Sequence record: NC_027330.1
Strand: one strand, 5' to 3'
Source: Escherichia phage ECBP5
Length of the DNA stretch: 45,403 bases
In this document: positions 695 through 44,277 of the stretch, piece after piece
How positions within the stretch are numbered: the first letter of the stretch is position 1
Layout of the letters: every line of letters begins with the position of its first letter
Position numbers and translations under genes: made by a program
Notes under the pieces: model-generated
Seen by the model: only the letters and a program-made list of their open reading frames with translations
What the model was told of the DNA's origin: nothing
The model's database searches: none

Positions 695-1729
695 ATGCAA
701 AACATTAATGACTCTCTGCTGGCTATCATCAAGGGCTTTGACAAGATGACTGTTAAGGCTGCTTGGACTGAGGTTGATGCGCTGGGTGTAGATGTTAGCT
801 CATTGAATACCAAAACCCGTGAGGGCTTTATTACCTCTCTTGACCAGCTGCGCGTAAGCCTGAATGAGGCAGCTGTAGTTGAGGAGGAAGCTACTCTGAT
901 GTCTGAGCTGGATTGCTTAGAGGGTGAGATTAAGGCTACTATCGCTGATGCTGGTAAGGCTACTTTCCACTTAGGCGAGCTGCTGCTGAAAGCTAAAGAT
1001 GCTCACGAAAGCACACCGGACTTTCTGAAGTGGGTAGATGAGAAGTTTGGAATCAAGAAAGCTTGGGCTTATCGCTTGATGAAAGTGGCTAGCGTATTCC
1101 AAGAGGATGCATGGAAAGCAACTGCTGTTGAGGTGCTGTACACCCTGCAATCCCAAGCCACTGACAGCCAGCTTGAGCAAGCCAGAGAGCTGGCTGAGGC
1201 TGGCAAGCTAAACCGCAAGACTCTCTCCGAGCTGCTGGAACCTGTAGCGCCACCAGTTAAACAAGCTGAGCAGCCAGAGCCACAGAGTAGCCAGAAGCTG
1301 CTGCAACAAGCTGCGGACAGCCTGATTGCAAGCGCTGCTGAGCCACAGGAGGCCGCGCCACAGCTGCCAGAGTCTAGTGCACTAGACAGCAAGCCACAGG
1401 AGGATAAAGAAGACTTGATGGAGCTTGTAAGAGATTTACGTGAGCAACTGGCACTACAGCAGCAGCAGAATGCGGAGCTTATGAAGCAAATCACAGAGGC
1501 TAATAAGCCACGCATAGCGGCTAGTAACGCGCCTATGCTGCCTCAGTTCTCTAGCACTTGCATGTACGCCCGTTTAGGGCTGGCTGCTGAGGATGCAGCA
1601 GATAAGGCTAAGATTCTGGAAGCATTCAAGAGCTTGTGTAAGGCTGGCTATGGCCGCCAGCATGAAGCGTATAGCTTGCTTGATGAAGCTCGCCATAAGC
1701 TCATTCACGCTATGGAGGACGCAGCATGA
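695..1729 (+). CDS. Early hypothetical protein with Q/A/P-rich low-complexity central region
   Basis: 344-aa ORF with GAGG-type RBS upstream; no recognised catalytic motif. Confidence 0.7.
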   Translation: MQNINDSLLAIIKGFDKMTVKAAWTEVDALGVDVSSLNTKTREGFITSLDQLRVSLNEAAVVEEEATLMSELDCLEGEIKATIADAGKATFHLGELLLKAKDAHESTPDFLKWVDEKFGIKKAWAYRLMKVASVFQEDAWKATAVEVLYTLQSQATDSQLEQARELAEAGKLNRKTLSELLEPVAPPVKQAEQPEPQSSQKLLQQAADSLIASAAEPQEAAPQLPESSALDSKPQEDKEDLMELVRDLREQLALQQQQNAELMKQITEANKPRIAASNAPMLPQFSSTCMYARLGLAAEDAADKAKILEAFKSLCKAGYGRQHEAYSLLDEARHKLIHAMEDAA

Positions 1730-1911
1730 TTAACGGGAAACTCTATTTCTCAGAAGTTACTCACTGCTATTATCTGGTTAATGGTGATAGCTACCATTAT
1801 TATGAAACTTTTAGAAATACTCTTTGGCAGAAAAGCATTAATAATGCAGCACTTTTATTCTATTCACGAATAGATTTAAGGTTGTTGGGTAACAACTTCA
1901 GGCTTAAGTAA
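1726..1911 (+). CDS. Small hypothetical protein (61 aa)
   Basis: ATGA start/stop overlap with the upstream gene; AT-rich; weak support. Confidence 0.35.
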   Translation: MINGKLYFSEVTHCYYLVNGDSYHYYETFRNTLWQKSINNAALLFYSRIDLRLLGNNFRLK

Positions 1912-1960
1912 CTACTGGCGGCTAGCGATAGCCGCTATCAACTCTTTATAAGGAAATCAG

Positions 1961-4594
1961 ATGTACACTAGCGATGAGCTTTACCAGAAACAACTTGAGC
2001 TAGAAGGGGAGATGCATGGCTACGGTGTTACTCGCTTTGACCGTAACAACCAACGTGCGATTGATAGCGGTACACCTTCAGACACTGATTGGAACCGCCG
2101 TTTACTTTCTAACTTCATTGAGCCTATGGTGAAGGGTATTAATGCTTATAAGGAGTACTACAAGACTAAAGCTGGACGGCCTACAGTGGCTTTAAAGTAC
2201 ATCCGGCAGGTGCAGCCAGAGCAAGCGGCATACATCGCCATTAAGAACATTCTGGATGTGCTGGGTAGTACAACATTTGATGCTAACTGGCTTGTTACCA
2301 CTATTGGGCGTAGGATTGAAGACCAAGTAAGATTTACTAAGCTTGAGGAGGCTGCACCTAAGTATGTAGGCAAGGTTAAGGATAGCTTAGCTAAGCGCAA
2401 CTCTCTCCAGTATGCACACCAGCATAAGGTACTGGTCGCTACTGAGAAGAAGCTAGCGGAGAATCCAGACCGTGCTCAGCTTGAGCTGCCACGCTGGCAG
2501 GAGTGGGCTGAGGAGGATTGCAAGCACGTTGGTAGCTTGCTGGTCAATATCTTTGAGCAGTGTATTCTGTTTGAGGGTGAGCCAGTAATCCGCAAGGAGG
2601 TGCAGACAGTTCGCAAAGGTACACTGGTCTTCATCAAGCCTACTGAGAAAGTTACCAAGTGGATTCATGAGTTCAGAGAGGCTATTGGCGGGCTTGCTCC
2701 AGCTTACGCACCTTGCGTAGTTCCTCCGCTTGATTGGACTTCCCCATTTACTGGCGGGTTCCATACTGAAGCTGTTAGCAGCACTCTACATCTTGCTAAG
2801 GTTCGCAACAAGCGCCACCTGCGCAAGCTGACTAAAGAGCAGATGCCAGCAGTCTACAAGGCTGTAAATAACTTGCAGAAAGTGCGCTGGCGTATCTCTG
2901 AGCGTGTACTGGCAACCGCTAATACACTAGTGGAGCTGGGCTTGCCTTATGCGCTGCCGTCAAAGGATGAAAGCGACTGGAAAGAAAAGAATCCATGCCC
3001 TGTACCTGAGTACCTGCAAGACCTGCGAGGCGAGCAGCTGAAAGCGGCGCTTACTGCCAGCCAGTGGGAGGCTTTTCAAGAGTGGAAACAACTGGCACGC
3101 CAGAACTACGACGAGGAGAGCGAGCGCGTAGCAAGCTTTAGGGAAGTTGTTCGTACTTTAGGGCAGGCTAACCGCTACGTTGGCTTTGATGCAATCTACT
3201 TTGTGTACACGCTGGACTTTCGCGGGCGTGTCTACTGCCAGAGCAGCCTTGTAAGCCCACAGGGTGGCGACTTGCAGAAAGCCCTCATCAAGTTTGCGGA
3301 TGGTATGAAGCTGGGTGAGCGCGGCGAGTACTGGTTCAAGGTGCATGGCGCTAACGAATGGGGCTGGGATAAGAAGACCTTTGATGAGCGCGTAGCTCTG
3401 GTCAGCGAACCTGAGTTCTGCGAGATGTGCCTAGACATTGCCAGTGACCCAGTGACCTTCAATGACTGGATTAAGGCCGATAAGCCGTGGCAGTTCCTCA
3501 ACTGGTGCTTTGAGTATGCTGACTTCCTGAAGCATGTGCAATCAGCTGGCAACCCACAGGACTTTGTAAGCTATATCCCTTGTGCAATGGATGGTTCTTG
3601 CTCTGGCATCCAGCACTACTCTGCAATGCTGCGCGATACTGTTGGCGGTACTGCTGTTAACTTGGTTAACTCTGACAAGCCTAATGACATCTACGGAGAG
3701 GTCTGCAAGGTGACTATTAAAGAGCTGCAAGCAATTGCTGACGGCTCACAGGTATATGACAGCAAGATTGACCCTGTATTAGCTCAGCAGCTGGCGCAGG
3801 AGTGGCTACGTCTGCAACCAAATCGCAGCCTGACCAAGAAACCTGTTATGACCCTGCCTTACGGCAGCACTCAGTTAACCTGCCGTGAGCATGTTAGCCA
3901 GTGGCTTAAAGATTTGCAGAAGGAGGAGAACAAGCGAGCTAAGGCAGAGTTCAGAGAGCCTATGAAGGTACACGCTTTCGGCGATGCAGACAGCGCTATG
4001 CCGCTAAAGTTTGCTGAGTCTCTTATGACTAGCATTGTTTGGCACTCTATCGGCAAGGTTGTAGTAGCTGCGAGGGCTGGTATGGCTTACATCAAAGCCG
4101 TAACAAGCTCAGTGGCTAAGATGAATATGCCGCTTGAGTGGACTACTCCAACAGGCTTTATTGTCCGTCAGGAGATTTACCAGTTCACAACACGTCAGGT
4201 AAATACTCAGCTGCTGGGTGGAACTAAGTTTGTGGTCAGCACTAAGAGTAAAGATATTGATTATCATCGTATGATTAACTCCTGTGCGCCTAACTTTGTT
4301 CACTCAATGGATGCGAGCCACCTTACACTGGCAACTAACTACTTTGCAGATGCAGGTATTAGCAGCATTGCAGTAATCCATGATAGCTTTGGCACACATG
4401 CAGGAGCCACTGACCTGCTGCGTGAGCGTCTGCGAGCTTCAATGGTAGATATGTACGAACAGCATGACGTTATCACTAACTTCCTTGCTGAAACTGAGGG
4501 CAGACTTATGACAGCTTTTGAGCACATTCGAGTGCCAGAGCGTGGTGAGCTGCAACTTGATAGCATTAATCAATCTACATACGCTTTTGCGTGA
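1961..4594 (+). CDS. Single-subunit DNA-directed RNA polymerase (T7 gene 1 homologue)
   Basis: 877 aa; T7 RNAP-like segments DGSCSGIQHYSAMLRD, APNFVHSMDASHL, HDSFGTHA and C-terminal ...YAFA. Confidence 0.95.
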   Translation: MYTSDELYQKQLELEGEMHGYGVTRFDRNNQRAIDSGTPSDTDWNRRLLSNFIEPMVKGINAYKEYYKTKAGRPTVALKYIRQVQPEQAAYIAIKNILDVLGSTTFDANWLVTTIGRRIEDQVRFTKLEEAAPKYVGKVKDSLAKRNSLQYAHQHKVLVATEKKLAENPDRAQLELPRWQEWAEEDCKHVGSLLVNIFEQCILFEGEPVIRKEVQTVRKGTLVFIKPTEKVTKWIHEFREAIGGLAPAYAPCVVPPLDWTSPFTGGFHTEAVSSTLHLAKVRNKRHLRKLTKEQMPAVYKAVNNLQKVRWRISERVLATANTLVELGLPYALPSKDESDWKEKNPCPVPEYLQDLRGEQLKAALTASQWEAFQEWKQLARQNYDEESERVASFREVVRTLGQANRYVGFDAIYFVYTLDFRGRVYCQSSLVSPQGGDLQKALIKFADGMKLGERGEYWFKVHGANEWGWDKKTFDERVALVSEPEFCEMCLDIASDPVTFNDWIKADKPWQFLNWCFEYADFLKHVQSAGNPQDFVSYIPCAMDGSCSGIQHYSAMLRDTVGGTAVNLVNSDKPNDIYGEVCKVTIKELQAIADGSQVYDSKIDPVLAQQLAQEWLRLQPNRSLTKKPVMTLPYGSTQLTCREHVSQWLKDLQKEENKRAKAEFREPMKVHAFGDADSAMPLKFAESLMTSIVWHSIGKVVVAARAGMAYIKAVTSSVAKMNMPLEWTTPTGFIVRQEIYQFTTRQVNTQLLGGTKFVVSTKSKDIDYHRMINSCAPNFVHSMDASHLTLATNYFADAGISSIAVIHDSFGTHAGATDLLRERLRASMVDMYEQHDVITNFLAETEGRLMTAFEHIRVPERGELQLDSINQSTYAFA

Positions 4595-4603
4595 GGTGAC
4601 AAG

Positions 4604-5008
4604 ATGGAAAACTTTAAAGTAACTGAGCTTGATGATGAATTCATTATTATCCAAGAGTATGCTTGGCAGCGTCCAGAAACTATCACAGTATCTATAACAG
4701 AGACTGATGAAGCTGGTAACACTAAATTGGTCAAAGAGTGGAAAGAGCAGCGCAAGCCAGAGAATAAAGAGCTTCTTGCTGACATCTATATCTTTAATAA
4801 AAGCCAGCTAGATATGATGCGGTGGAATTATCAACTAGGTAACTGTCCTATTACTCAGAAGGGCTTACGTCGCTACTCGCTGGCTTATGGAAGCGGTAAT
4901 AACTGGTTTGGTTGCCCAGCAAGGACAGCTAAGCAGATGCTTAAGAGAGGTGTAGCTATACCTAAAGAGCTGTATGGATTATTCACTCATGTAAATGGAG
5001 CCTACTAA
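4604..5008 (+). CDS. Hypothetical protein (134 aa)
   Basis: ORF with GAGGTGA RBS 6 nt upstream. Confidence 0.6.
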   Translation: MENFKVTELDDEFIIIQEYAWQRPETITVSITETDEAGNTKLVKEWKEQRKPENKELLADIYIFNKSQLDMMRWNYQLGNCPITQKGLRRYSLAYGSGNNWFGCPARTAKQMLKRGVAIPKELYGLFTHVNGAY

Positions 5009-5184
5009 TGGAAGCTTTAATTAAAGGGCAGACCGTGTGGATTCACAGCTACACAGTGGGTCATGGTAACAACATTAAGCTCAAGCAGAGCGTCCACACG
5101 GATAAAGAGAAAGCCGTAGAAGCTTGGCGCTTGTTGGGTGGTTGGTTTAATGAGGCTGTAATTGTTGGAGTTGGTCAACAATGA
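5008..5184 (+). CDS. Small hypothetical protein (58 aa)
   Basis: TAATG overlap with upstream stop and ATGA overlap with downstream start; not in ORF track (<60 aa). Confidence 0.4.
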   Translation: MEALIKGQTVWIHSYTVGHGNNIKLKQSVHTDKEKAVEAWRLLGGWFNEAVIVGVGQQ

Positions 5185-5525
5185 AACTAAGTTATGAAGA
5201 ACTTGAGGCCAAGTGCGCTGCGCTGGCTGCGGAGAATGCGGGGCTGAAGAGTATACAGGAGTGGGCGGTTTCAGGCGTATTTAAATCAGGAGCTAAGGTA
5301 TTCGAGTCAACCAAAGCATCAGGATTTGACACTGACGACTGCCTACATGATGCGGTGCTTGTGATGCTATCTGAGCTGAAAACCCCGGCCACCGACGCTT
5401 TTCTGGCTGAAGTACGGGCGCAGGGTGTGGAGATGTTTGCAAAATATATAGCCCTTTACAATTCCAACTCAGAGCACCATGCGCAATCGTTCGCCGCACA
5501 GCTTCGCAAAGGGGTGCAGTTATGA
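5181..5525 (+). CDS. Hypothetical protein (114 aa)
   Basis: ORF translationally coupled to flanking genes. Confidence 0.6.
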   Translation: MKLSYEELEAKCAALAAENAGLKSIQEWAVSGVFKSGAKVFESTKASGFDTDDCLHDAVLVMLSELKTPATDAFLAEVRAQGVEMFAKYIALYNSNSEHHAQSFAAQLRKGVQL

Positions 5526-5743
5526 AACTTGTATTAGTCCTAGGGCTTGCTGATGGTCGTGTAATTGAGTGGCCTGATGATGCTGCACCTAAGTCTGTTA
5601 AGCCACCTGTCAACCGTGAAGGTGTTACGCAAACTTACAGCCTTGTAGGTTTCGTAGGTAACGAGGCTTACTATATACCTGAGTACACTACAGCAGCTCA
5701 GGCAATCAAACTATTAGTGGGGAGGGTATATGAGGAAGGTTAA
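5522..5743 (+). CDS. Hypothetical protein (73 aa)
   Basis: ATGA overlap with upstream gene. Confidence 0.5.
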   Translation: MKLVLVLGLADGRVIEWPDDAAPKSVKPPVNREGVTQTYSLVGFVGNEAYYIPEYTTAAQAIKLLVGRVYEEG

Positions 5744-5948
5744 TGTTAAGAAAAGTAAAATGAGAGGTACTGGAAATGTTTACCCAGGCCACCTAAGGCC
5801 TGACACCTATGAAAGGTTTACTGTTGAGGCCATGTTTCACCAGTTTATGCAAGAATCAATAGGTGATAAGGTGGAGGTTGTAGCAGTAGTTGAGTACAGA
5901 GATGGCACTGTAGAAACTGTACCATTATCTGCTATTAGCTTTGGGTAA
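5730..5948 (+). CDS. Hypothetical protein (72 aa)
   Basis: GGGAGGG RBS upstream of ATG; followed by a terminator hairpin. Confidence 0.5.
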   Translation: MRKVNVKKSKMRGTGNVYPGHLRPDTYERFTVEAMFHQFMQESIGDKVEVVAVVEYRDGTVETVPLSAISFG

Positions 5949-5954
5949 GTCACA

Positions 5955-5984
5955 GGCAGCTACTTAGGTGGCTGCCTTTTCTTT
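5955..5984 (+). terminator. Rho-independent terminator candidate closing the early/RNAP operon
   Basis: GGCAGC...GCTGCC stem followed by TTTTCTTTT. Confidence 0.5.
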
Positions 5985-5994
5985 TATCTGGCTT

Positions 5995-6078
5995 GTACTA
6001 GTTTGATAGTACAGTTGTTGAGAGTTATTCTCAGTCTAGTATACTAGACTAGACCGAATCGTACTAGTTGGCTAGTAC
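5995..6078. repeat. Cluster of three short palindromes
   Basis: GTACTAGTTTGATAGTAC, AGTCTAGTATACTAGACT and GTACTAGTTGGCTAGTAC in tandem. Confidence 0.7.
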
Positions 6079-6153
6079 AACAGGCGTTCCTACGTGAATA
6101 CTTTAAAATTTTGCGGGCGATTATCCGTCAGAATTTAAAGTTTTCTGAAAATC

Positions 6154-6175
6154 TTTAGGCACTACAATAGGGAGC
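6154..6175 (+). promoter_or_regulatory. Phage-RNAP promoter candidate (consensus copy)
   Basis: TTTAGGCACTACAATAGGGAGC; resembles the T7-class promoter layout (CACTA..ATAGG core, +1 G). Confidence 0.6.
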
Positions 6176-6274
6176 AAGCTAAGTAAGTTAAGTAAGCTAT
6201 AGTAAGCTAACTAAAGCTTAGTAAGCTCCCCTCTTTCCCTCTTTATAGAGGGATATAATATAGTAAGCCTTATC

Positions 6275-6313
6275 AGCCCTCTTGAGTGTAGTAGCTCAGG
6301 AGGGCTTTATTTT
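6275..6313 (+). terminator. Rho-independent terminator candidate
   Basis: 12-bp stem AGCCCTCTTGAG/CTCAGGAGGGCT (one mismatch) followed by TTATTTT. Confidence 0.6.
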
Positions 6314-6331
6314 GTCTAGTACACTAGACTG
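6313..6331. repeat. Palindrome AGTCTAGTACACTAGACT family copy
   Basis: GTCTAGTACACTAGACTGG. Confidence 0.7.
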
Positions 6332-6335
6332 GAGA

Positions 6336-6357
6336 CTTAGGCACTCCAATAGATAAC
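6336..6357 (+). promoter_or_regulatory. Phage-RNAP promoter candidate (variant)
   Basis: CTTAGGCACTCCAATAGATAAC; two substitutions relative to consensus. Confidence 0.45.
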
Positions 6358-6375
6358 TAATCAACGGAGCAGTTT

Positions 6376-6528
6376 ATGCAAACTAGTATTAAGCCAGAGA
6401 AGATGCAGTCTAAGAAGCTACGTAAGCTGAATGAGAAGGAGCAAGAGGAGCTTGCAATCCGTCAGCAGCATAAGGGCAAGCACCATAAGACCCAGCGTGG
6501 CAAGCGCCCTGAGTGGGAGGCTTATTAA
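6376..6528 (+). CDS. Small basic hypothetical protein (50 aa)
   Basis: GGAG RBS upstream; K/R-rich; stop 2 nt before the primase-helicase ATG; not in ORF track. Confidence 0.45.
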   Translation: MQTSIKPEKMQSKKLRKLNEKEQEELAIRQQHKGKHHKTQRGKRPEWEAY

Positions 6529-6530
6529 GT

Positions 6531-8543: not shown

Positions 8544-8728
8544 TGATTGACACCCTTATTAAAATGTTCAAATTGGCGAGGGCTAACCCCGATGCCTTCT
8601 GTGATGGCGGTACAGTAGGTGAAAAGTGCTCTGGCATTAGTTGCCATGACTGCCCCTTCTCCTCAACCTCTAATCTTAATGCAACAATTGTTGAGCTTGA
8701 GAAAGCTCAGGAGAAACAAGATGTCTGA
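8543..8728 (+). CDS. Small Cys-rich hypothetical protein (61 aa)
   Basis: TAATG overlap with the helicase stop. Confidence 0.45.
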   Translation: MIDTLIKMFKLARANPDAFCDGGTVGEKCSGISCHDCPFSSTSNLNATIVELEKAQEKQDV

Positions 8729-9366: not shown

Positions 9367-9385
9367 CGCTAACGTTGGCCTCAAG

Positions 9386-9578: not shown

Positions 9579-9585
9579 AGTTAAT

Positions 9586-9855: not shown

Positions 9856-9863
9856 GGTGAATC

Positions 9864-13802: not shown

Positions 13803-14567
13803 ATGTCTTTAGATAACTTTGACTTCGGCGCAGACCTAGCAGAAGCGTCTGGTGTCAAACGAGTAAACCCTGAAGTTGGCTTGCACTTTGCTCGTTTGCG
13901 TAGTGTGATTCACTTAGGCTCAATTGCTGCCATGTACCGTGGAAAGCCAAAGCCACCAGTTAACAAGGCTGCTTTCATCTTTGAACTTAAGGGCGACCTT
14001 GATGAGATTGATGACCTGCACCCTGACAACGGTGAGCCATTGTGCATCGGCATCGGGGTTAACCTTACCAAAGGTGACAATGCCAAGCTCACAGAAGTTA
14101 TGGCAGCTCTCATCTCTAAGAAGGAGATGGAGGAAGGTACTGTCAAAGGTATGGATGACCTGATTGGTCGTGTCTGCCAGCTTGACCTGAAGGGCAGTGA
14201 TGCCAAGGGTGATGACGGTAAGCCTAAGTACGTTGACATCAAATCACTCAGCCCTGTGGCTAAGGCATTCGCCGCACAGATTCCTGAGCTGTCAGTAGCT
14301 GGCGTAGGTCACTGCCGCCTGTCTCAGCTGTCTATGGCTGCGATGGATGAGCTGAACGTGTTCCTCGATGTCCAAGAGGGCATCATGAAATCTGAGGAGT
14401 GGAAAGCAGGAACGCACCCAGCAATCGCTCTGGTAGAGGAAATCCGCAAGGAGCGTCCGAACTATGCCAAGGCTGAGAAGAAGTCTGACAAAGGCGCTGA
14501 CGAGCCACAGGGCGAGCAGGAGCCGTCTAAGCCAGCTGAGCAGATGAACACCGATGAGGAGTTCTAG
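13803..14567 (+). CDS. Putative ssDNA-binding protein (T7 gp2.5-like by size and tail); acidic C-terminus ending in Phe
   Basis: AGGAGAAAC RBS before ATG 13803; C-terminus ...EQEPSKPAEQMNTDEEF; N-terminal DNFDFGA motif shared with the exonuclease; SSB call is an inference. Confidence 0.6.
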   Translation: MSLDNFDFGADLAEASGVKRVNPEVGLHFARLRSVIHLGSIAAMYRGKPKPPVNKAAFIFELKGDLDEIDDLHPDNGEPLCIGIGVNLTKGDNAKLTEVMAALISKKEMEEGTVKGMDDLIGRVCQLDLKGSDAKGDDGKPKYVDIKSLSPVAKAFAAQIPELSVAGVGHCRLSQLSMAAMDELNVFLDVQEGIMKSEEWKAGTHPAIALVEEIRKERPNYAKAEKKSDKGADEPQGEQEPSKPAEQMNTDEEF

Positions 14568-14609
14568 TCTAGTACACTAGACTGAAGCCGTACTAGTTAG
14601 CTAGTACGG
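14564..14609. repeat. Two adjacent palindromes (family copies)
   Basis: TCTAGTCTAGTACACTAGACTGA and CCGTACTAGTTAGCTAGTACGG. Confidence 0.7.
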
Positions 14610-14610
14610 T

Positions 14611-14633
14611 ATTAGGCACTACAATAGGAATAG
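14611..14633 (+). promoter_or_regulatory. Phage-RNAP promoter candidate (consensus copy)
   Basis: ATTAGGCACTACAATAGGAATAG. Confidence 0.6.
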
Positions 14634-21509: not shown

Positions 21510-23102
21510 ATGAGAGGGTATAGCCCTATCATCACTAAGGGTGGTGATGTTCCTTATATGAACAATCGCATGAAGGTTAAGGAAGAATCTGGCAAGCCAA
21601 AGTCAACCCTAGCTGAGCGATATAAAACCCTCTCAGCTAAGAGGGAGACACAGCTTTCACGAGCTAAGATGTATGCAAAGATTACCCTGCCAGCTCTGTT
21701 CACTGAAGACCAGAGTACTGACCAAGGTGATGCATATACTCAGAATAGCTGGCAGAGCTTAGGTGCGCAGGGTGTTAACCATCTGGCTAACAAGTTGGTT
21801 ATGACTTGGTTCCCGCCACAGCGTTCCTTCTTTAAGCTAGAGTTTACAGATGAGGCTAAGCAGGCTCTATACGATACTGGTACAGATGACGTTGAATTAC
21901 TCAGTATCATGGCTAGGGCTGAGAACAAAGCTAGACTTCTGCATGAACAAATCCAAGGACGCATTGCATGGACACAAGCTGCTAAGCATTTAATTGTAGC
22001 TGGCAATGCTATGCTCTATGCACCAGTTAATGACAGTCTTGTATGTTATCCGATGGATAAGTATGTAGTTAAACGTTCAAAGACTGGACGTGTAACTCAG
22101 ATGATTCTGGAGGAAGTTAAGTGCTTGAGTGAGTTCCCTCCAGCTGTTCAGGCTATCATCAAGGCTAAGAGGTTTAACCTTAAGCAAGATGATACTGTTG
22201 AGTTGTACACACAAGCTAAGTGGGATGGTAGTATGTATGTCATCACACAGGAAGCTGTGGATACTACAATAGGGAAGGAATACCGAGTCAAGCCTGAGGA
22301 GTCACCATTCATCGTCCTGACTTGGGAACGTCTGTATGGAGAGGACTATGGTCGTGGCTTAGTAGAATCTTGCTACGGCGACTTATTCACTTACGCTTTC
22401 CTGTCTAAAGCTGTTGCTAAAGGTTGTGCGCTTATGTCAGAGGTTAAATTCCTCGTCAAGCGCGGTTCAGCCACTTCACCAACTGCACATGCTAAAGCCG
22501 AAACAGGTGATTATGTATGGGGAGAGGAGGGTGATGTAAGTGTTGTACAGCTAGAGAAGTATGGTGATTACCAGACAGTCTTATCAGTTCTTGAAACATA
22601 CTCTAAGCGACTAGGTCAGGCATTCCTTCTGGCATCTGCTAACCGCAGGGATGCAGAGCGAGTGACAACCTATGAGCTGCGTATGGATGCAATGGAGCTG
22701 GAGACATCATTAGGTGGAACCTATTCTCAGATTGCTGTATCAGGTCAGCTACCTTATGCTAACCTGTTGCTCCAGCGCTCTGGCTTTAAGCTCCCTGCTA
22801 CTGATGCTGTACCAATCATTATCACAGGTATTGAGGCGCTAGGTAAAGCTGGTGAGCTTGATAAGCTTATGCAGCTGTCAGAGATGATGGCAATCCCTAA
22901 TAGCTGGTCGACAGCTGCACAGGAGCGCATCAAGTGGTCTGACTATATCGCATTCATCGCAGCTAACCTTAACATGGAGACTAGTTGGCTGATGACTGAA
23001 GATGAGTACAACAAGATGAAGCAGGCACAGCAACAGCTAATGCAGCAACAGCAACTTATGGAAGCTGCTGGTAAAGCTGCCCCACAAATGATGAAACAAT
23101 AA
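21510..23102 (+). CDS. Head-tail connector (portal) protein (T7 gp8-like)
   Basis: 530 aa; SWQSLGAQGVNHLANKLVM parallels T7 gp8 PWQAVGARGLNNLASKLML; TAAGGAGGG RBS. Confidence 0.9.
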   Translation: MRGYSPIITKGGDVPYMNNRMKVKEESGKPKSTLAERYKTLSAKRETQLSRAKMYAKITLPALFTEDQSTDQGDAYTQNSWQSLGAQGVNHLANKLVMTWFPPQRSFFKLEFTDEAKQALYDTGTDDVELLSIMARAENKARLLHEQIQGRIAWTQAAKHLIVAGNAMLYAPVNDSLVCYPMDKYVVKRSKTGRVTQMILEEVKCLSEFPPAVQAIIKAKRFNLKQDDTVELYTQAKWDGSMYVITQEAVDTTIGKEYRVKPEESPFIVLTWERLYGEDYGRGLVESCYGDLFTYAFLSKAVAKGCALMSEVKFLVKRGSATSPTAHAKAETGDYVWGEEGDVSVVQLEKYGDYQTVLSVLETYSKRLGQAFLLASANRRDAERVTTYELRMDAMELETSLGGTYSQIAVSGQLPYANLLLQRSGFKLPATDAVPIIITGIEALGKAGELDKLMQLSEMMAIPNSWSTAAQERIKWSDYIAFIAANLNMETSWLMTEDEYNKMKQAQQQLMQQQQLMEAAGKAAPQMMKQ

Positions 23103-35857: not shown

Positions 35858-35865
35858 GAGGTAAC

Positions 35866-36099: not shown

Positions 36100-36403
36100 T
36101 AAGAATTCAGCCACAGAGGATGATGTAGGCCTTATCCATAAGCTTGTTACTAAGGTCATCACTAAGAAGCTTGAGAAGTGGTTAGAGCTTATTGAGCAGG
36201 GTGGTGACGTAGATTTAGTTGTGGATATGAAACAGCTCAAGTCTGCCATCGACTGGTGTGACAAGAATGGCATTGTATGTGCTGACCCAGCTGAGCAGAG
36301 TGACAATGAGCTTGGTGATAAACTGTCTGAGATTCGTAAAGCTCAACACGCTCGTGGTGTTGTCGTTCCATTCAAAGAGGATGAGGAGGGTTATGGTACA
36401 TGA
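36077..36403 (+). CDS. Terminase small subunit (T7 gp18-like)
   Basis: GTG start 6 nt after AAGGAGG; about 108 aa; directly upstream of and overlapping the large terminase gene. Confidence 0.6.
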   Translation: MASVSKSNKNSATEDDVGLIHKLVTKVITKKLEKWLELIEQGGDVDLVVDMKQLKSAIDWCDKNGIVCADPAEQSDNELGDKLSEIRKAQHARGVVVPFKEDEEGYGT

Positions 36404-38250: not shown

Positions 38251-38283
38251 TGGCAATAATCCCTTAGTTTTCATAACTTTGGG

Positions 38284-38305
38284 ATTAGGCACTACAATAG
38301 GAGAA
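38284..38305 (+). promoter_or_regulatory. Phage-RNAP promoter candidate (consensus copy)
   Basis: ATTAGGCACTACAATAGGAGAA followed by AGTAAG-repeat leader. Confidence 0.6.
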
Positions 38306-38422
38306 AGCTAAAGTAAGTACAGTAAGTAAACAGTAGCTATAAATAGCTATAGTAAGCTTTAGTTAGCCTAAGTAGTAACCTACTTATTGTCTTATTATAT
38401 TCTTTATAAGGAGAGCTATTAG

Positions 38423-39034
38423 ATGGCTACATATACCACCAGCATACTTAAGCTTATAAAAGGCTCTTTGTCTTCTGGTAAACTGCCTAAGGCTAACTCA
38501 CAAGGTGACTTAGTTGACTCTAAGTTAACTGATGATGGCACAAAGCTTGCTTACAATGGTAATGAAGTAACAGACTCTCGCACACAGCGTAAAAAGACTG
38601 AGGTCTATTACACTGGTGTTTCTGTTACTCTCACTGCGGGTACTCAGTACAATTTAGTAAACCTGTTAAAAGCTCTTACAGCAAACTCAGGTACACTTGC
38701 ACCATTCTTTGACACTACATCCAACAAACTCAAGGTTATTAATGATAATGCTAGTTGCATGTTCAAACTTAACCTAGTAGGCAACTGGGCGAACGCATCA
38801 TCAGATAGGAGTCTTCAGGTTGACTTTGTAGGAACAAACGGCAACAGGTTAGTTGCTAACAGGTCTTCAGCTACCACAGCTGATTCATTAACACTATCTA
38901 CTTTCTTATCTGTTGATAAGAATGGTAACTTAGCAACAAATGGCAGCACTGTTAACTTAACAGCTGTTGGTATCAACTTCACAATTACATCTGCGCTTCT
39001 TATTGCTGAGCAGGTAACTAAAGAATCTTTCTAA
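38423..39034 (+). CDS. Hypothetical late protein, Ser/Thr/Asn-rich (203 aa)
   Basis: AAGGAGAG RBS; own promoter upstream. Confidence 0.6.
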   Translation: MATYTTSILKLIKGSLSSGKLPKANSQGDLVDSKLTDDGTKLAYNGNEVTDSRTQRKKTEVYYTGVSVTLTAGTQYNLVNLLKALTANSGTLAPFFDTTSNKLKVINDNASCMFKLNLVGNWANASSDRSLQVDFVGTNGNRLVANRSSATTADSLTLSTFLSVDKNGNLATNGSTVNLTAVGINFTITSALLIAEQVTKESF

Positions 39035-39046
39035 GGAGATTAACAT

Positions 39047-39325
39047 ATGCCACGTAATATTACTGGTGATTCACCTAAGTCTGTACAAACTCAGTCCGTA
39101 TCTATGCTGCCAGTGGCTATTGTCACTCAGGCAAACTTGGCTAGCGCAGCTCACCCTATCAACGATACTACCAAGTCTGGCAAGCAAGTTGGTGGTCTGG
39201 TCTACGTTAAGCTGACTACTGGTGGTAATGTCTGCATCGCAATTGCTCAGGGTTCTGGCGCTACTGATAAGTGGCTGGTACTTGGCATGGATGCTGCTGG
39301 CTTCATTGAAGTAACACCAGCTTAA
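39047..39325 (+). CDS. Hypothetical protein (92 aa)
   Basis: AAGGAGA RBS. Confidence 0.55.
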   Translation: MPRNITGDSPKSVQTQSVSMLPVAIVTQANLASAAHPINDTTKSGKQVGGLVYVKLTTGGNVCIAIAQGSGATDKWLVLGMDAAGFIEVTPA

Positions 39326-39335
39326 TAAGGTTGGT

Positions 39336-39356
39336 CAGTCTAGTACGCTAGACTGG
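39336..39356. repeat. Palindrome family copy, terminator-like
   Basis: CAGTCTAGTACGCTAGACTGG followed by CCTCTTTCT. Confidence 0.6.
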
Positions 39357-39368
39357 CCTCTTTCTACT

Positions 39369-39926
39369 ATGAATACATTACTAATGCTACTTGCGTTAAT
39401 AAATCCTGTTCAGAAGTTAGAGCAAGATTTATCAAAGCACATAGAAATTTATACACACCAAGGAGGTTCCGAGTTGAATCGCAGTCAATTCCAGCGCTAT
39501 ATATTGCGCCCTACCCTTGAGAAGCTTGGTCTATACTCGCCACAAGCTGAGCGCTTGCTGACTATGATTGTAGCCCATGAATCTCTCAAGGGTCATTATA
39601 TTGTACAGACCACAGGGCAGGCTAAAGGCTTGTACCAGATGGAGAATGCAACACACGATGATGTGCTGCGTTGGGTTCACAATAACCGTCCTGAGCTTTA
39701 CCGTGAGATTGTAGAAATGGGTGATGGTCAGCCGTCAGCAGTTAAGATGATTACTGACTTAGACTATGCAACCGCTATGGCTCGCGCGTTCTTCCTCCGC
39801 TTTCCTGAGCCGTTGCCGACAGGCAACGACGAGGAGCTTGCAGCATACGCTAAGAAGCGCTGGAACACTCACTTAGGTAAGGCCACTCCTGACGACTACT
39901 TGAAGGCTTATCAGTCTTGGAAGTAA
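39369..39926 (+). CDS. Lytic transglycosylase-like protein (putative endolysin)
   Basis: AHESLKG...GQAKGLYQME fits the ES...GLxQ transglycosylase signature (compare T7 gp16 N-terminus TESRF...GPLGMMQF); short N-terminal hydrophobic stretch. Confidence 0.7.
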   Translation: MNTLLMLLALINPVQKLEQDLSKHIEIYTHQGGSELNRSQFQRYILRPTLEKLGLYSPQAERLLTMIVAHESLKGHYIVQTTGQAKGLYQMENATHDDVLRWVHNNRPELYREIVEMGDGQPSAVKMITDLDYATAMARAFFLRFPEPLPTGNDEELAAYAKKRWNTHLGKATPDDYLKAYQSWK

Positions 39927-40038
39927 GTTGCAGCAGCTGGTGTCAGCTTAAGTGGCAGGAGGCAGTTGAGTCAGGTGATGACTTAGCTGCCAGTGACTAT
40001 CTAAAGCTCTATGAGCTTTGGAGTAGCAGAGGTATGTA

Positions 40039-40353
40039 ATGAGTACAAGCAATATACCTAGCTTAGGTGGCTTCACTCCTATTGAGTCTCTTGTAAAAGG
40101 CGGTAGTGCTAAAGACATCTTCAATCCAATGAACATCTGGAATGATGGTGCAGGTGTATTACAGAAGCCATCGTCCTTGTTTACCAAGGAGACTATTACT
40201 GGAACAGGTAAGGACACTGAGAAGTCTCGTACTAAAGCTCAGGAAGAGGAAGATAGTGCTGCTGCTAAGCAAAGCTCTAGGGATGCTAACAAGTGGCTCA
40301 ACTGGACACCTAGTAGAAGTAGCACTAATACTAAAACTGGTTTATCTATTTAG
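40039..40353 (+). CDS. Hypothetical protein (104 aa)
   Basis: ORF with internal acidic patch. Confidence 0.5.
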   Translation: MSTSNIPSLGGFTPIESLVKGGSAKDIFNPMNIWNDGAGVLQKPSSLFTKETITGTGKDTEKSRTKAQEEEDSAAAKQSSRDANKWLNWTPSRSSTNTKTGLSI

Positions 40354-40361
40354 GAGTAATC

Positions 40362-40511
40362 ATGGGTAAGATTTTTAAGAATAAGAAAGTAGTAGCAGCT
40401 GCTGTTACCTTAGTTCTTGTCATCTTGGGTACAGCCCTAGGGACTGACTTGGGTGCAGATACTGCAAATAGCGTTACTGACCTTATCTGCACTATTGTAA
40501 GCTGTCAGTAA
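40362..40511 (+). CDS. Small membrane protein (49 aa)
   Basis: TAGGAG RBS; single hydrophobic helix VVAAAVTLVLVILGTALG; not in ORF track. Confidence 0.4.
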   Translation: MGKIFKNKKVVAAAVTLVLVILGTALGTDLGADTANSVTDLICTIVSCQ

Positions 40512-40720
40512 TGATTAAAGCTCTCCTTGAAGTTCTGGCAATCCTGCTCCGAGCTATTGAAAGGAAGCAAGTAAAAGAGGAGCAGCAAGATGCGCAAGCT
40601 GAAGCTGATCGTATTAGCACCAATCCTACTGAGTGGTTTAATGATCACTTCAGGGTGCGTACAGAGTCCAGCAAGACAGATGCCAGTAAAGCCAGCCCTG
40701 ACAACAGTCACACAAGTTGA
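40511..40720 (+). CDS. Putative i-spanin (Rz-like)
   Basis: N-terminal hydrophobic segment followed by charged helix; overlaps o-spanin candidate in another frame. Confidence 0.5.
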   Translation: MIKALLEVLAILLRAIERKQVKEEQQDAQAEADRISTNPTEWFNDHFRVRTESSKTDASKASPDNSHTS

Positions 40721-40799
40721 TGGTCAGATGTGCATGGATTTACAAGATGCAACTAAGTTGGGTTTGTACATACTAGGCCTTGAGCGCGGCTATCAGTAG
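40590..40799 (+). CDS. Putative o-spanin lipoprotein (Rz1-like)
   Basis: Signal peptide with lipobox-like LMITSGC, Pro-rich mature part; starts inside the i-spanin ORF in the +1 frame. Confidence 0.55.
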   Translation: MRKLKLIVLAPILLSGLMITSGCVQSPARQMPVKPALTTVTQVDGQMCMDLQDATKLGLYILGLERGYQ

Positions 40800-40855
40800 C
40801 CGCCTTATTACTCATAGCTATTCACAGTGAGTGGCTAGCAGTAATAGGAGATAAC

Positions 40856-42484
40856 ATGGCTAAACTTACAAGAGTAACGGACGCATTTGTGTACGTTAAG
40901 TCTAAATTAGCTGGAGCAATCCAGCGACTGTTAGAAGACAAGATGACTGACACTCTATCCATTAAGGATTTTGGTGCAGTCGGAGATGGTGTGCATGATG
41001 ACACAGATGCAATCATTGCAGCCTTCGCAGCTGCTAAGAACAAGTTTGGGGTCATTGCACCCTCAGGCCGTTATCGTGTAACCAGAGAGATTCCAGTCGA
41101 TTATGCACTGGTACTTATCGGGGAAGGTGGGAATGGCTTTAAGGGTACAAACTCAAGCCACAATCCATCGCCTCACTTTGGCACTACCTTTGTAAGTGAC
41201 ATGGCTAGTGGATACGTGTTCAATATCTCACCTGCTGCTTTCCAGTTTGGTCTTACCTTGCGTGACTTCTCTATCGAGCGTAACGAGTCATTAGGTATCA
41301 ACAATGCACGAGGTATGAGACTACATAATGTAGGGTGGACTGGTATCGTAGACAACGTGTGTATTGATGGCTTCTGGGAACATGGCTTGGTTATTGGTTA
41401 TATCCAAGATACACACTTCCGAGGCTGTACGGTATTACGTTGTGGTAATGAAGATGTGCCTAGTATTGAGATTGTTAATGACTCAAACTACGTATACTTC
41501 TTAAACTGCCATATCGAGTATTCTCCGTTCCTGTTCAAGAATACTGGCAATGCTTGGGAAGTTCACTTCACAAATAACCACTTTGAAGTTGCACAGTACG
41601 GCTCTAGCTCTGGTCTGCCTACCTTGAAGTATAAGCAAGCTCCGCTACAGCTTGGTGGTGGCAACATGGTTACTTTCAATACTTGTACAATTGTACCAGT
41701 ATCTGATGAGTATCTTCAGACTGCCCTTGGCATACCGTTTGACTCTTTACCATATTTCATTACTGGCTCGGGTTCATTCGTCAAGTTCATCAACTGCTCT
41801 GGTATTGCGCCAGAAGGTTCTGTCAGCTACATGTACCTAACAGGTACTGGTAATAAGGTACTTGGTGGCACATGGAAAGACATGACACCTAGGCGCCCTA
41901 GTATTGTCCTTGAAGATGGTGACATTGCTAATAACACATTAGCTATCCGTGTAGCTGCTGATGAGACAAAGCTGTACGGTGTCTTAGTCAATACTCGTGG
42001 CAAGATTACTGATAACTTGTTAACTGCATCAGGTACAGCGTCTACTACACGCAGAACTACTGGCATCCTTGTTGGATGTAGCCCTAGTGCGCCATTAGGA
42101 GCTGTTCAAGTTAGTGGTAACACTTATGACCTTGGTAATAGACCTAACCGCTATGTCTACCATCGTATTCAGATCAGTGGTCATGATGGAGGCTGCTCTT
42201 ACTTTGAGGGTATTAATGCCGCATTGTTTGACTTGGACTATGAGCTTTATAACCCTGCTGCAAACTTTGCTATGTGGAATACAACCTCATGGCAAGTGAC
42301 CAGTCAGGTCAATATGAATCCAGGACGTGTAGTAATGTTCCACGCAGGTGCAATAGCTGGATTTATTAATTACAGTGCATATGTAAAGAATGCTACGTTT
42401 AATAACCTTGCAGTAGAAGCTGGTGCATCTATTATGTACAAAGGCATCTCTGACGGTGAAGCAAGGATGTTCCAAGTTAAGTAA
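40856..42484 (+). CDS. Tailspike with pectate-lyase-like beta-helix domain (putative polysaccharide depolymerase)
   Basis: IKDFGAVGDGVHDDTDAIIAAF is a pectate-lyase-type beta-helix N-cap signature; 542 aa. Confidence 0.85.
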   Translation: MAKLTRVTDAFVYVKSKLAGAIQRLLEDKMTDTLSIKDFGAVGDGVHDDTDAIIAAFAAAKNKFGVIAPSGRYRVTREIPVDYALVLIGEGGNGFKGTNSSHNPSPHFGTTFVSDMASGYVFNISPAAFQFGLTLRDFSIERNESLGINNARGMRLHNVGWTGIVDNVCIDGFWEHGLVIGYIQDTHFRGCTVLRCGNEDVPSIEIVNDSNYVYFLNCHIEYSPFLFKNTGNAWEVHFTNNHFEVAQYGSSSGLPTLKYKQAPLQLGGGNMVTFNTCTIVPVSDEYLQTALGIPFDSLPYFITGSGSFVKFINCSGIAPEGSVSYMYLTGTGNKVLGGTWKDMTPRRPSIVLEDGDIANNTLAIRVAADETKLYGVLVNTRGKITDNLLTASGTASTTRRTTGILVGCSPSAPLGAVQVSGNTYDLGNRPNRYVYHRIQISGHDGGCSYFEGINAALFDLDYELYNPAANFAMWNTTSWQVTSQVNMNPGRVVMFHAGAIAGFINYSAYVKNATFNNLAVEAGASIMYKGISDGEARMFQVK

Positions 42485-42567
42485 TAAGTATTAATACTTA
42501 TTGAATCGTAACCAATTGGCAGCTTGCTAGGTAGTTATAGTAAGCTGCTGTTAACTGGAGTAAAGTT

Positions 42568-42696
42568 ATGTTATCTAATCAAGAGTTATTAGAAAAGTTT
42601 GATGAACTTATGTCACATCTCAATAGTGAAGACAACAGTATGGCTGAGGAGTTCAGAATTAATCTAGAGGAAGTATTAGAGTATCTTGTAAGCTAG
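42568..42696 (+). CDS. Small acidic hypothetical protein (42 aa)
   Basis: GGAG RBS 8 nt upstream; helical acidic peptide; weak support. Confidence 0.3.
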   Translation: MLSNQELLEKFDELMSHLNSEDNSMAEEFRINLEEVLEYLVS

Positions 42697-42873
42697 CTAG
42701 GTAGCCATTAGTGGTTACTGTAAGCTGGCCTTGAAACTTAAAATAGGGTGGACAGTTACAGCAGTTCCCGCCGCCGCCAGCTTCAGCTTTCCCCCATCGG
42801 GGTGGCTGCTGGCAACCTCTTAGGCCGCAGGCAGTTAGAGGGGGGGTGGGTAGGCTGGCTAGGTAGCTGGCAG

Positions 42874-43033
42874 TAGACCGACTGGTCTAGCGTAAGTCAT
42901 TGATGTTGTATCAGCTAACGAGTACATGAGAGCGCTGTACGTGAATACTTGCTGGCTCAAGCTGGCTGTGGCTCACAGAATTCTCCAGAGTGCGCTATAC
43001 ATATCAATGACTTACGTTAGACCGACTGGTCTA
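42874..43033. repeat. Two direct copies of 16-bp near-palindrome TAGACCGACTGGTCTA flanking an inverted repeat CGTAAGTCATTGAT / ATCAATGACTTACG
   Basis: Copies at 42874-42889 and 43018-43033; inverted repeat arms at 42891-42904 and 43003-43016. Confidence 0.75.
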
Positions 43034-43486
43034 CTAGTGGCTGGTCAGGCAGCTGCTGTGAGCTGGCTAGGTGGCTTACGGATAGCCGATTGTGAGCAGC
43101 CAGTGAGCCGCTGTGGGCTTCAGCTCCGCTGTGGCTACGGTTGGCTTGCCAGTGGCTTGAGGCGCTCTGTGAGCTGCTGAGGGCTGTGGCTTGCTGTACT
43201 CGTGTGCTAGTACGCTGCTGTGTGTATCTGTCTTTAGTCTGATGGGCTACTGTCTTTAGTTTGCTGCACCACTGGTAGCTTATTGGGTAGCTCATAGGTA
43301 GCTTACAAGGCTCACAGCTTGCTGGTACTACTGAGGGCTTACTAGGTAGCTTGCTATCACTGACTAGGTAGCTGCTGTTAGTTCACTAGGTAGCTAGCTA
43401 TGGCTTACTAGGTAGTTACTAGGTGGATTGATGTAAGCTTACTCAAGCTCTCTCTTAGTGCATCATTCGATGCACAATATAAGAAG

Positions 43487-43510
43487 AATAAGACACTACA
43501 ATAAGAATAG
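43487..43510 (+). promoter_or_regulatory. Phage-RNAP promoter-like motif (variant) near presumed left end
   Basis: AATAAGACACTACAATAAGAATAG. Confidence 0.4.
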
Positions 43511-43588
43511 AGTACGCCTTGCCAACAGCTCTCATGAGCTATCTAGGTGGCTTACTATCACTTACATCCAACTAACTAGGAGGCTTAC

Positions 43589-43687
43589 ATGAGCCTAGAT
43601 ATGCTGTACACACTAGTAGTCTGCTTTCTCATTAACTTGTTTGTACACTTCATAGCATTTAGCTTGCTAGAGGTATTGGCTGGGTAG
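43589..43687 (+). CDS. Small hydrophobic peptide (32 aa)
   Basis: TAGGAGG RBS 7 nt upstream of ATG; single hydrophobic helix; weak support. Confidence 0.25.
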   Translation: MSLDMLYTLVVCFLINLFVHFIAFSLLEVLAG

Positions 43688-43693
43688 CTTGAG

Positions 43694-43712
43694 TCAGTCT
43701 AGTACACTAGAT
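43694..43712. repeat. Palindrome family copy
   Basis: CAGTCTAGTACACTAGATT. Confidence 0.6.
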
Positions 43713-43745
43713 TAAGCTAATGTGAGCTACATCACTAAAATAGTG

Positions 43746-43774
43746 TTGACTAGGTAGCTCACTGCCTGTATAGT
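43746..43774 (+). promoter_or_regulatory. Host sigma70-type early promoter candidate
   Basis: TTGACT, 17-bp spacer, TATAGT; downstream TACTTACA resembles the T7 A1 start region. Confidence 0.45.
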
Positions 43775-44031
43775 TACTTACATCAAGACGACACAGCAAC
43801 AAGTTATCTTGATAGTGGCTCTAGTAGCTACTTGCTCTTTAACAATATGATGATTAGAAGCTTAGGCTGTACGGGTATTACTTCTCCTCAATCCGTCGCA
43901 AGACATCAGTGAGAGGCTAGCAGGAAGCGCTAGGGCAATAGAAAGTGACCTTATGCAGTGCTGCTAATCATCAAGCTCTTTAACAATCTGGAATCTACCT
44001 GATAGGCTTACTACAACAAAGGTGAACTATC

Positions 44032-44277
44032 ATGGCTATGAACAAAGTTAAATCTCCATTCGTCAAGATACTGCGTAAGGCTGGCTACTCAGTTAAGGAA
44101 GCAATGAACATCACGCTAGATGCTCAATACAACTTTCATAACACCAGACGCTGCTCAAGCAAGCACTTTAATCACTTGGCTAAGAATGGCAGGGTTGGTT
44201 GTATGTTCCAGTGGGATAACACCCCTGAGGGAGTACAATACTGGAATTATGTGCAGTCTGCGCTTAACAATAGTTAG
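44032..44277 (+). CDS. Early hypothetical protein (81 aa)
   Basis: AAAGGTGA RBS; basic protein. Confidence 0.6.
   Translation: MAMNKVKSPFVKILRKAGYSVKEAMNITLDAQYNFHNTRRCSSKHFNHLAKNGRVGCMFQWDNTPEGVQYWNYVQSALNNS

Follow-up and report, generated by a model that had tools for sequence, protein, structure and literature searches.

The early region of Escherichia phage ECBP5, a probable class I transcription unit of an SP6-like podophage with a Kil homologue and a conserved K1E gp6 family protein

The genome of Escherichia phage ECBP5 (NC_027330.1) contains nine plus-strand open reading frames (ORFs A to I) between a candidate sigma70-type promoter at position 43746 and the gene of the single-subunit phage RNA polymerase, across the join of the record. 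All positions refer to the window, that is, the whole analysed stretch of 45,403 nucleotides. We consider it likely that this region is the class I (early) transcription unit of an SP6-like podophage of the genus Gajwadongvirus, an explanation that includes its expression and the roles proposed for its products. Host sigma70 RNA polymerase would initiate at 43746, and the two boxA elements of the rrn/T7 type in the leader would recruit Nus factors and render the polymerase resistant to termination. This polymerase would then transcribe the closely spaced small genes, some of them translationally coupled, and continue through the gene of the phage polymerase. Among the products, a homologue of lambda Kil (ORF F) would, like lambda Kil itself, interfere with assembly of the FtsZ ring and thereby block cytokinesis of the host. 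Protein H (344 aa) would bind DNA via a ParB/KorB-like helix-turn-helix (DUF3102) domain and self-associate via a coiled coil. Its J-derived C-terminal module would offer a surface for protein-protein interactions, with DnaK, another J protein or a different host partner as examples, and since the HPD tripeptide is lost, it should not stimulate the DnaK ATPase in the canonical manner. The remaining small proteins, including a zinc-knuckle protein, would be fast-evolving or mosaic accessory early proteins.

A sequence-only reading of the same DNA had proposed a block of small early proteins of a T7-like phage between the sigma70 promoter and the polymerase gene. The block was confirmed, with the named ORFs present on the plus strand, and the region appears to be of the host-transcribed type, with a sigma70-type promoter and a T7-identical boxA in the leader. 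As a whole, the early region matches the expectation for the left end of an SP6-like phage, and it is an ordinary early region of this phage type. The moderately novel item is only the architecture of the K1E gp6 family, to which H belongs, combining DUF3102 with a J-like domain lacking HPD. The transcription signals ahead of the block are the following:

43487..43510, plus strand: site resembling a promoter of the phage RNA polymerase, 83% identical to the reference copy of ATTAGGCACTACAATAGGA, upstream of the host promoter in a phiOL-like position
43746..43774, plus strand: candidate sigma70-type early promoter, TTGACT-17-TATAGT, 10/12 consensus positions
43814-43832 and 43833-43845, plus strand: hairpin followed by boxA-1, TGCTCTTTAACAA, with the exact E. 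coli rrn boxA core
43974-43986, plus strand: boxA-2, AGCTCTTTAACAA, one mismatch to boxA, extending as GCTCTTTAACAATCTGG over 43975-43991

The promoter at 43746 is the only strong sigma70 match in the region. The phage-type promoter consensus, approximately ATTAGGCACTACAATAGGA, was found in nine copies (6153, 13413, 14610, 14756, 18008, 24008, 34886, 38283 and 43487), and the first of them downstream of the polymerase gene is that at 6153. Position 22252 is perhaps a further copy. Similar to T7, where phiOL at 405 lies ahead of A1 at 498, the site at 43487 precedes the sigma70 promoter. The rrn boxA core was compared as printed in PMC2724277. The 17-nt GCTCTTTAACAATCTGG is identical to T7 positions 813-829, between promoter A3 and gene 0.3 of T7, and K1E carries TGCTCTTTAACAATTTG upstream of gp1. 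The presence of boxA in this phage, T7 and K1E suggests that Nus-dependent early antitermination may operate across the T7 supergroup. The early regions of T7 and of SP6/K1E-like phages show the same order of elements, namely phage promoter-like site, sigma70 promoter, boxA, small genes and RNA polymerase gene. Thus, judged from the arrangement of the 43487 site, the sigma70 promoter, the boxA sequences and the 6153 promoter, the block appears to be laid out like a T7-type class I unit. There are also differences. T7 has three sigma70 promoters (A1 to A3), whereas one strong promoter was detected here; the leader of this phage has two boxA copies, unlike T7 and SP6/K1E-like early regions; and this phage possesses a Kil gene, which T7 and K1E lack.

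A further motif, ACTAGGTAGCT, has one copy, at 43749, that overlaps the -35 hexamer of the promoter at 43746. It is repeated with a 22-bp period at 43341-43417 in the non-coding left end, as three exact copies and one with a single mismatch, and occurs also at 42858. The total is nine matches, with 1.8 expected by chance.

The ends of the window are identical over 208 bp, with positions 1-208 repeated exactly at 45196-45403. Therefore, the window is a complete genome of 45,195 bp in circularly permuted form, with its two ends overlapping, and the ORF that wraps around the window end (ORF E), whose wrap-around coordinates had been given in the sequence-only reading, is real: it is an ordinary gene split by an arbitrary start point. 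DNA identity to Pectobacterium phage PP99 (L001), Vibrio phage JSF38, Pseudomonas phage MR4 and several Klebsiella phages is approximately 92% over the first 5 kb and the last 2.7 kb, and those relatives whose records give a full lineage are classed as Gajwadongvirus. The right end of the PP99 record maps to approximately window position 42876 and its left end aligns from approximately 43190, which would place the physical genome end a few hundred bases upstream of the early block, as in T7. A search of the PP99 record for terminal repeats that would define the genome end detected none. The element TAGACCGACTGGTCTA is present twice, at 42874-42905 and 43002-43033, 144 bp apart and within a larger inverted repeat (…GCGTAAGTCATTG / CAATGACTTACG…). 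The PP99 record stops just past its own copy of the first TAGACCGACTGGTCTA element, and for this reason the repeat area 42874-43033 is probably the region of the genome terminus. Rfam at gathering thresholds identified no RNA family anywhere in the window.

The genes of the block and its downstream boundary are, in order of transcription:

44032-44277, plus strand: ORF A, 81 aa, basic (isoelectric point, pI, 9.8), Shine-Dalgarno (SD) sequence AGGTGA
44485-44589, plus strand: ORF B, 34 aa, hydrophobic (grand average of hydropathicity 1.24), weak SD
44662-44937, plus strand: ORF C, 91 aa, with the invariant motif TKYLPATNTRGxRIK
45003-45191, plus strand: ORF D, 62 aa, hydrophobic N-terminus and basic tail
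45193-45403 continuing at 209-234 (that is, 45193-45195 plus 1-234), plus strand: ORF E, 78 aa, ATG at 45193
234-374, plus strand: ORF F, peptide of the lambda Kil family, 46 aa, start codon overlapping the stop of ORF E (TAATG)
361-621, plus strand: ORF G, the Cys-rich protein, 86 aa with 5 Cys, predicted helical core and C-terminal CxxC...CxxC zinc knuckle
695-1729, plus strand: ORF H, the low-complexity protein and K1E gp6 orthologue, 344 aa, with a middle rich in Q, E, P and A
1726-1911, plus strand: ORF I, 61 aa, SD GGAGG, start overlapping the stop of ORF H (ATGA)
1961-4594, plus strand: single-subunit phage RNA polymerase, 877 aa, downstream boundary of the block

The stretch 44032..45191, which had been named as one unit, is indeed coding on the plus strand, but comprises four ORFs (A to D) and not one gene. 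The ORFs at 234-374 and 1726-1911 belong to the same block and had been omitted. The proteins described as Cys-rich (361-621) and of low complexity (695-1729) have the composition reported for them, and they belong to conserved families and are not ORFans. The earlier statement that no family could be recognised holds in part: ORF F passes the Lambda_Kil profile and H resolves only via family profiles, while the rest match PHROGs families of unknown function or none. No confident homology to housekeeping or structural proteins was found in the block.

ORF F is the gene of the block with the clearest relationship to a characterised protein. It matches Pfam Lambda_Kil (PF06301) with 35.2 bits (gathering cut-off 27.6, E 8.2e-9, profile positions 6-30 of 31) and three PHROGs Kil families. 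With BLASTP, lambda Kil residues 5-36 (32 residues) align with ORF F at 44% identity, and the helix-turn-helix core of both proteins has the pattern A..K..IA.F.GD.KM..EA. In the five Kil sequences compared (lambda, this phage and three relatives), 11 columns do not vary. In lambda Kil, the helix-turn-helix core (residues 4-38) was found to be essential by deletion analysis (PMC11762379), and the block of Z-ring assembly is ZipA-dependent (PMC3961180). ORF F is thus a probable inhibitor of FtsZ and division of the host. The lengths are similar, 46 aa in ORF F and 47 aa in lambda Kil, but the latter belongs to a lambdoid phage and ORF F to a lytic phage of the T7 supergroup. T7 gp0.4 is functionally comparable to Kil and is likewise an early gene, although ORF F has no sequence similarity to it; gp0.4 was reportedly described by Kiro et al. 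in 2013 as an early gene of the lytic programme. Of the host-takeover role suggested earlier for the block, this part stands, with one gene identified as a Kil homologue predicted to block division. No ORF resembles T7 gp0.7. The Kil homology is the only direct support for host takeover, and it is a further instance of a gene already annotated in sister phages.

H is the largest protein of the block, and its parts are as follows:

887-1252, plus strand: predicted DUF3102 domain of ORF H, residues ~65-186, from family-level profile matches
1244-1402, plus strand: disordered Q/E/P-rich linker, residues 184-236
1400-1504, plus strand: long helix, read as a coiled coil, residues 236-270
1532-1549, plus strand: invariant PMLPQF, residues 280-285
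1559-1714, plus strand: J-like domain without HPD, residues ~289-340

H is 33% identical to K1E gp6 (E 4e-38). Its family comprised 152 proteins in a word-indexed search, with the longer carrier contigs at approximately 45 kb, and 308 clusters at 50% identity in a full profile search. It is present in 212 isolated phage records, including Vectrevirus/K1E, SP6-like Salmonella phages, and Proteus, Vibrio, Erwinia, Aeromonas and Pantoea phages. A tblastn search of plasmids with the 344-aa protein gave no match, and the family was seen here in phages only. In PP99, KL01 and K1E, no more than two small ORFs separate the H gene from the single-subunit RNA polymerase gene that follows it, and the same synteny was found in three metagenomic contigs at 25-30% identity. 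In Vibrio phage VEN the homologue is annotated as gp04, near the left end. In total, gene order was inspected in seven relatives, and each of them has H as the last sizeable gene ahead of the polymerase; with this fixed place H is the positional counterpart of T7 gp0.7. The latter, which combines a protein kinase with host transcription shut-off, is likewise the last sizeable early gene there, at 359 aa. The likeness is positional only, as H has neither sequence similarity to gp0.7 nor a kinase domain (no Pfam or NCBIfam kinase). To our knowledge, SP6-like phages lack T7 gp0.7 and gp2. In this position, the H family is annotated as hypothetical nearly everywhere across the 212 records of a large Autographiviridae group. 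From its conservation and fixed position, H is more readily understood as having a core early function than as an accessory gene for anti-defence.

In an alignment of 24 members, a variable N-terminus (~60 residues of variable helices in H) precedes a conserved centre (~65-186); this is followed by a Q/E/P-rich linker, again variable, then by a long helix, the invariant KPR...PMLPQF and a conserved C-terminal domain. The PMLPQF sequence is almost invariant family-wide, even at 25% identity, and lies in a predicted disordered segment before the J-like domain. It looks like a short linear motif for a host partner. DUF3102 (PF11300) was matched by 21/46 and 22/34 diverse members of the family (best E 6e-15), and Pfam DnaJ (PF00226) by 18/44 members (best E 2e-12). 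Both assignments of H are made at the family level, by transitive homology. For the C-terminal domain, a 44-sequence profile (A3) matches approximately 40 solved J domains with a best E of 2e-6, and hhalign against E. coli DnaJ gave 92% probability. The last ~55 residues of H align to J-domain helices I to III. For the centre, structure prediction of H with AlphaFold2 gave a ParB/KorB-like fold, and Foldseek of this model against the PDB returned matches at E >0.6 only, so that the ParB matches are a lead and not evidence. PDB sequence and profile searches with H and with its DUF3102 domain found no meaningful solved structure. On the model and the family profiles, a ParB/KorB-like helix-turn-helix domain in the centre of H is probable, with moderate confidence. 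The known systems taken as closest to it are the helix-turn-helix domains of ParB/Spo0J and KorB, together with Pfam DUF3102 and UPF0137. No ParB-type Pfam domain, and no N-terminal ParB/Srx domain binding cytidine triphosphate (CTP), was detected in H and 46 family members. Unlike ParB/Spo0J and KorB, H occurs in a lytic phage without a partition system and lacks the ParB N-terminal CTPase/Srx domain. A ParB partition protein was therefore rejected as its identity. No functional study of these proteins came up in literature searches on DUF3102, Gajwadongvirus, and Autographiviridae with DnaJ.

Several observations weigh against the explanation of the region as a class I unit with these products. 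The total of promoter-like sites in the region is not above that in shuffled sequence, and the promoter and the boxA elements are known as consensus matches only. H itself is below the Pfam thresholds for DUF3102 and DnaJ, with no DUF3102 match at E up to 1. Its AlphaFold2 model is moderate, with a predicted local distance difference test (pLDDT) of 68.7 overall: approximately 80 for residues 1-183, below 50 at 184-236, where the linker lies before the helix at 236-270, and 42-74 at the C-terminus, so that the J-like part is mostly below 70. ORF F lacks the C-terminal RSK/RSSK motif reported for nearly all lambda Kil homologues (PMC11762379) and ends in the basic LEYRNYVKR. This does not exclude Kil function, because removal of the C-terminal 11 residues of lambda Kil reduced its activity and did not abolish it (PMC11762379). 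In PP99, where the gene is unannotated, the Kil frame (2707-2845 of L001) is broken into two by either a frameshift or an error in sequencing; this points to a dispensable Kil or to a faulty record.

A 16-bp palindrome, GTCTAG-N4-CTAGAC (core AGTCTAGTACACTAGACTGGA), might bear on the possible targets of H. It was found at seven sites (1372, 6034, 6314, 9560, 14567, 39338 and 43697) versus 0.5 expected by chance, two of which lie within the early region or next to its promoter:

43697..43712, unstranded: palindrome copy 34 bp upstream of the -35 hexamer of the early promoter
1372..1387, unstranded: palindrome copy in ORF H, in the linker codons for E-S-S-A-L-D

The palindrome could equally be a protein operator or a small RNA hairpin. 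Tops of large hairpins of the RNase III type were also considered and dropped, as the flanks are unconserved and only 2/7 sites fold significantly better than shuffled sequence. A second hairpin family, GTACTAGTTRGCTAGTAC, is present at 5995, 6061 and 14590, adjoining the first palindrome and just upstream of the promoters at 6153 and 14610. The stretch 14537-14612 has a folding z-score of -4.4. These hairpins may be terminators or processing sites at the boundaries of transcription classes.

Three other accounts of H were weighed. H could be a KorB-like sequence-specific regulator that acts on the seven palindromes and controls the early-to-middle switch or organises the phage DNA. The ParB/KorB-like fold of the model and the excess of palindromes agree with this. 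Comparable palindromes are present upstream of the promoter region or in the early region of six relatives, the arms of the site at 1372 are kept in PP99 and RCIP0053 despite altered central four bases, and the sites at 6034, 6314 and 14567 are close to the phage promoters at 6153 and 14610. On chromosomes, parS is often located inside or beside parB, and KorB binds 13-bp palindromes. Nevertheless, nothing ties H to these sites, and the RNA hairpin reading is equally open, with several palindromes followed by GGAG and the surroundings of 14567 and 39338 folding significantly better than shuffled sequence. The N-terminal CTP-binding domain of ParB is absent, and no shared palindrome was found in the diverged gp6 homologue loci of KL01, VL73, L010 and L011, which are short and neither support nor refute the idea. 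We regard this account as unlikely. As a working J co-chaperone, H would instead recruit DnaK to DNA-bound complexes, in the manner of Rki of phage RB43 or of polyomavirus large T antigen with Hsc70. Homology of its C-terminal domain to J domains is consistent with this, as are the two distant family members that keep HPD and match Pfam DnaJ, and a functional J protein encoded by a phage is known in Rki (PMC3486835). The HPD tripeptide is required for stimulation of the Hsp70 ATPase by J-domain proteins. However, only these 2 of the 268 retrieved family proteins have HPD, the other 266 lacking it, while GYG is in place in 160 and others show HYNPD, HYTPE or IYTAA. In H, the loop between helices II and III is AGYGRQHEA, in which G318, Y319, G320 and R321 are invariant among 24 relatives, and it is shorter than in the members that keep HPD. 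With HPD absent, membership among canonical J co-chaperones was rejected, the domain was classed as J-like, and the co-chaperone account is very improbable. Relative to known J-domain proteins, H has the invariant GYGR for HPD and a shorter loop, and its J-like domain sits C-terminally after PMLPQF. Pam16 is a J-like protein without HPD, as H is. The combination of a J-type with a DNA-binding module, presumed in H, is found also in polyomavirus large T antigen and in the DNA-binding J protein CbpA of E. coli.

The third account goes beyond the single protein and is a long shot. The family of K1E gp6 and H might represent an undescribed class of early takeover proteins, targeted to DNA via a ParB/KorB-like domain and using the J-like domain without HPD together with PMLPQF to capture or block a host factor (DnaK, DnaJ, CbpA or RNA polymerase). 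If this were true, H would couple host shut-off to the early-to-middle transcription switch, and its targets would possibly be the seven palindromes, including those at the early promoter and in its own gene. SP6-like phages are common candidates for therapy and their host shut-off is poorly known. The function of this conserved early gene can be tested directly on the basis of the domain model of H and the candidate DNA site.

For the small ORFs, the explanation as accessory early genes of a class I unit competes with two others. Some or all of them could be chance frames in a non-coding leader, given that the ORF listing was purely mechanical, that annotations vary across related records, and that the 34-aa ORF B has a weak ribosome-binding site and only partial homologues. 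However, an SD-like sequence precedes each of the nine ORFs, the weakest being that of ORF B, and starts and stops are coupled by TGATATG (D/E), TAATG (E/F), a 14-nt overlap (F/G) and ATGA (H/I). The ratio of non-synonymous to synonymous substitution rates (dN/dS, Nei-Gojobori) against homologues of related phages is 0.0-0.4, with substantial dS, wherever it was computable, and 0.02 for the polymerase; several pairs were saturated at synonymous sites, and for ORF G no pair passed the coverage filter. Protein families were retrieved from many independent contigs, and ORF C has a confident predicted fold. The SD sites and the dN/dS values argue that the early ORFs are real genes, and chance frames are hardly credible. 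Alternatively, one or more of A, C, D, E, G and I, the small variable proteins, could serve anti-defence, for example anti-restriction or immune evasion, essentially as the sequence-only reading had suggested. These genes would be expressed first, and the early block is mosaic among phages with 99% identical polymerases: in close relatives the polymerase is 99% identical at the amino acid level and ORF H 92-96%, and the early ORFs vary from absent to 100%. ORFs A and C evolve faster (dN ~0.15, dN/dS 0.2-0.4, versus 0.02 in the polymerase), and ORF G has hypervariable loops on an invariant 4-Cys scaffold. Equivalent positions in relatives hold anti-restriction genes, which lie slightly upstream of the H homologue (S-adenosylmethionine lyase at 5408-5824 in L015; Ocr-like gp3 at 2346-2672 in K1E, L016), and no counterpart of either was found in the window. 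Against this, BLASTP of the early ORFs with T7 gp0.3 (Ocr), 0.4, 0.5, 0.6A and 0.7 and with K1E gp1-gp5, including the Ocr-like gp3, detected no similarity (E >1 for all early ORFs versus T7 gp0.3 and K1E gp3). Likewise, none of them matched a Pfam anti-defence family. A strongly acidic composition typical of DNA mimics was not found among the early ORFs either, whose pI ranges from 4.8 to 9.9, with only the 344-aa and 86-aa proteins mildly acidic. There is no positive evidence overall, and an anti-defence role for one of these proteins is a tentative possibility that we do not favour. The small mosaic ORFs are reasonable candidates for an anti-defence screen, not above the usual background of phage early ORFans.

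Pfam and NCBIfam scans of all nine ORFs identified nothing beyond Kil. A PADLOC scan of the nine ORFs gave no match, which is uninformative either way as its models cover defence and not anti-defence. Sub-threshold matches to Tho2, DZR_2, TerY_C, BrxA, YbgF and AVR-Pik were treated as noise. PDB sequence and profile searches with ORFs A, C, D, E, G and H found no meaningful match, and a match of ORF A to SAKe6AC was discarded as noise, since no matched stretch passes on its own.

The 21 homologues found for ORF G all lie on contigs that fit this phage group. Across them the core YPSRTVRGMYQQEQQIAKAEEAGLIVTAADL is conserved, the cysteines C60, C63 and C74 never change, C77 hardly does, and the N-terminus and the sequence between the Cys pairs are hypervariable. 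Zinc-ribbon matches in Pfam and PDB profile searches were sub-threshold only. From this pattern, ORF G would be a small zinc-knuckle protein with hypervariable loops.

The other small ORFs differ in their distribution among relatives, and several match PHROGs families of unknown function. ORF A was found in only two relatives (73-75% amino acid identity, dN/dS 0.27-0.40), with only weak matches to such families. ORF B is the least certain gene of the block. Its homologues in PP99 and KL01 gave a dN/dS of 0.13-0.16 with synonymous sites saturated, and its product is possibly a small membrane peptide. ORF C is 63-74% identical among close relatives. ORF D belongs to phrog_2385 (E 1e-21, unknown function) and is 98-100% identical in four relatives and approximately 54% in two others, with a dN/dS of 0.00-0.04. 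ORF E, which starts directly after the stop of ORF D and ends with TAA at 232-234, matches phrog_11917 (E 2e-6). It is 97% identical to its homologue in MR4 (dN/dS 0.03) and approximately 35% identical to the ORFs in the same position in PP99 and JSF38. ORF I has no family match, and is 38% identical to orf09 of PP99, with a dN/dS of 0.21.

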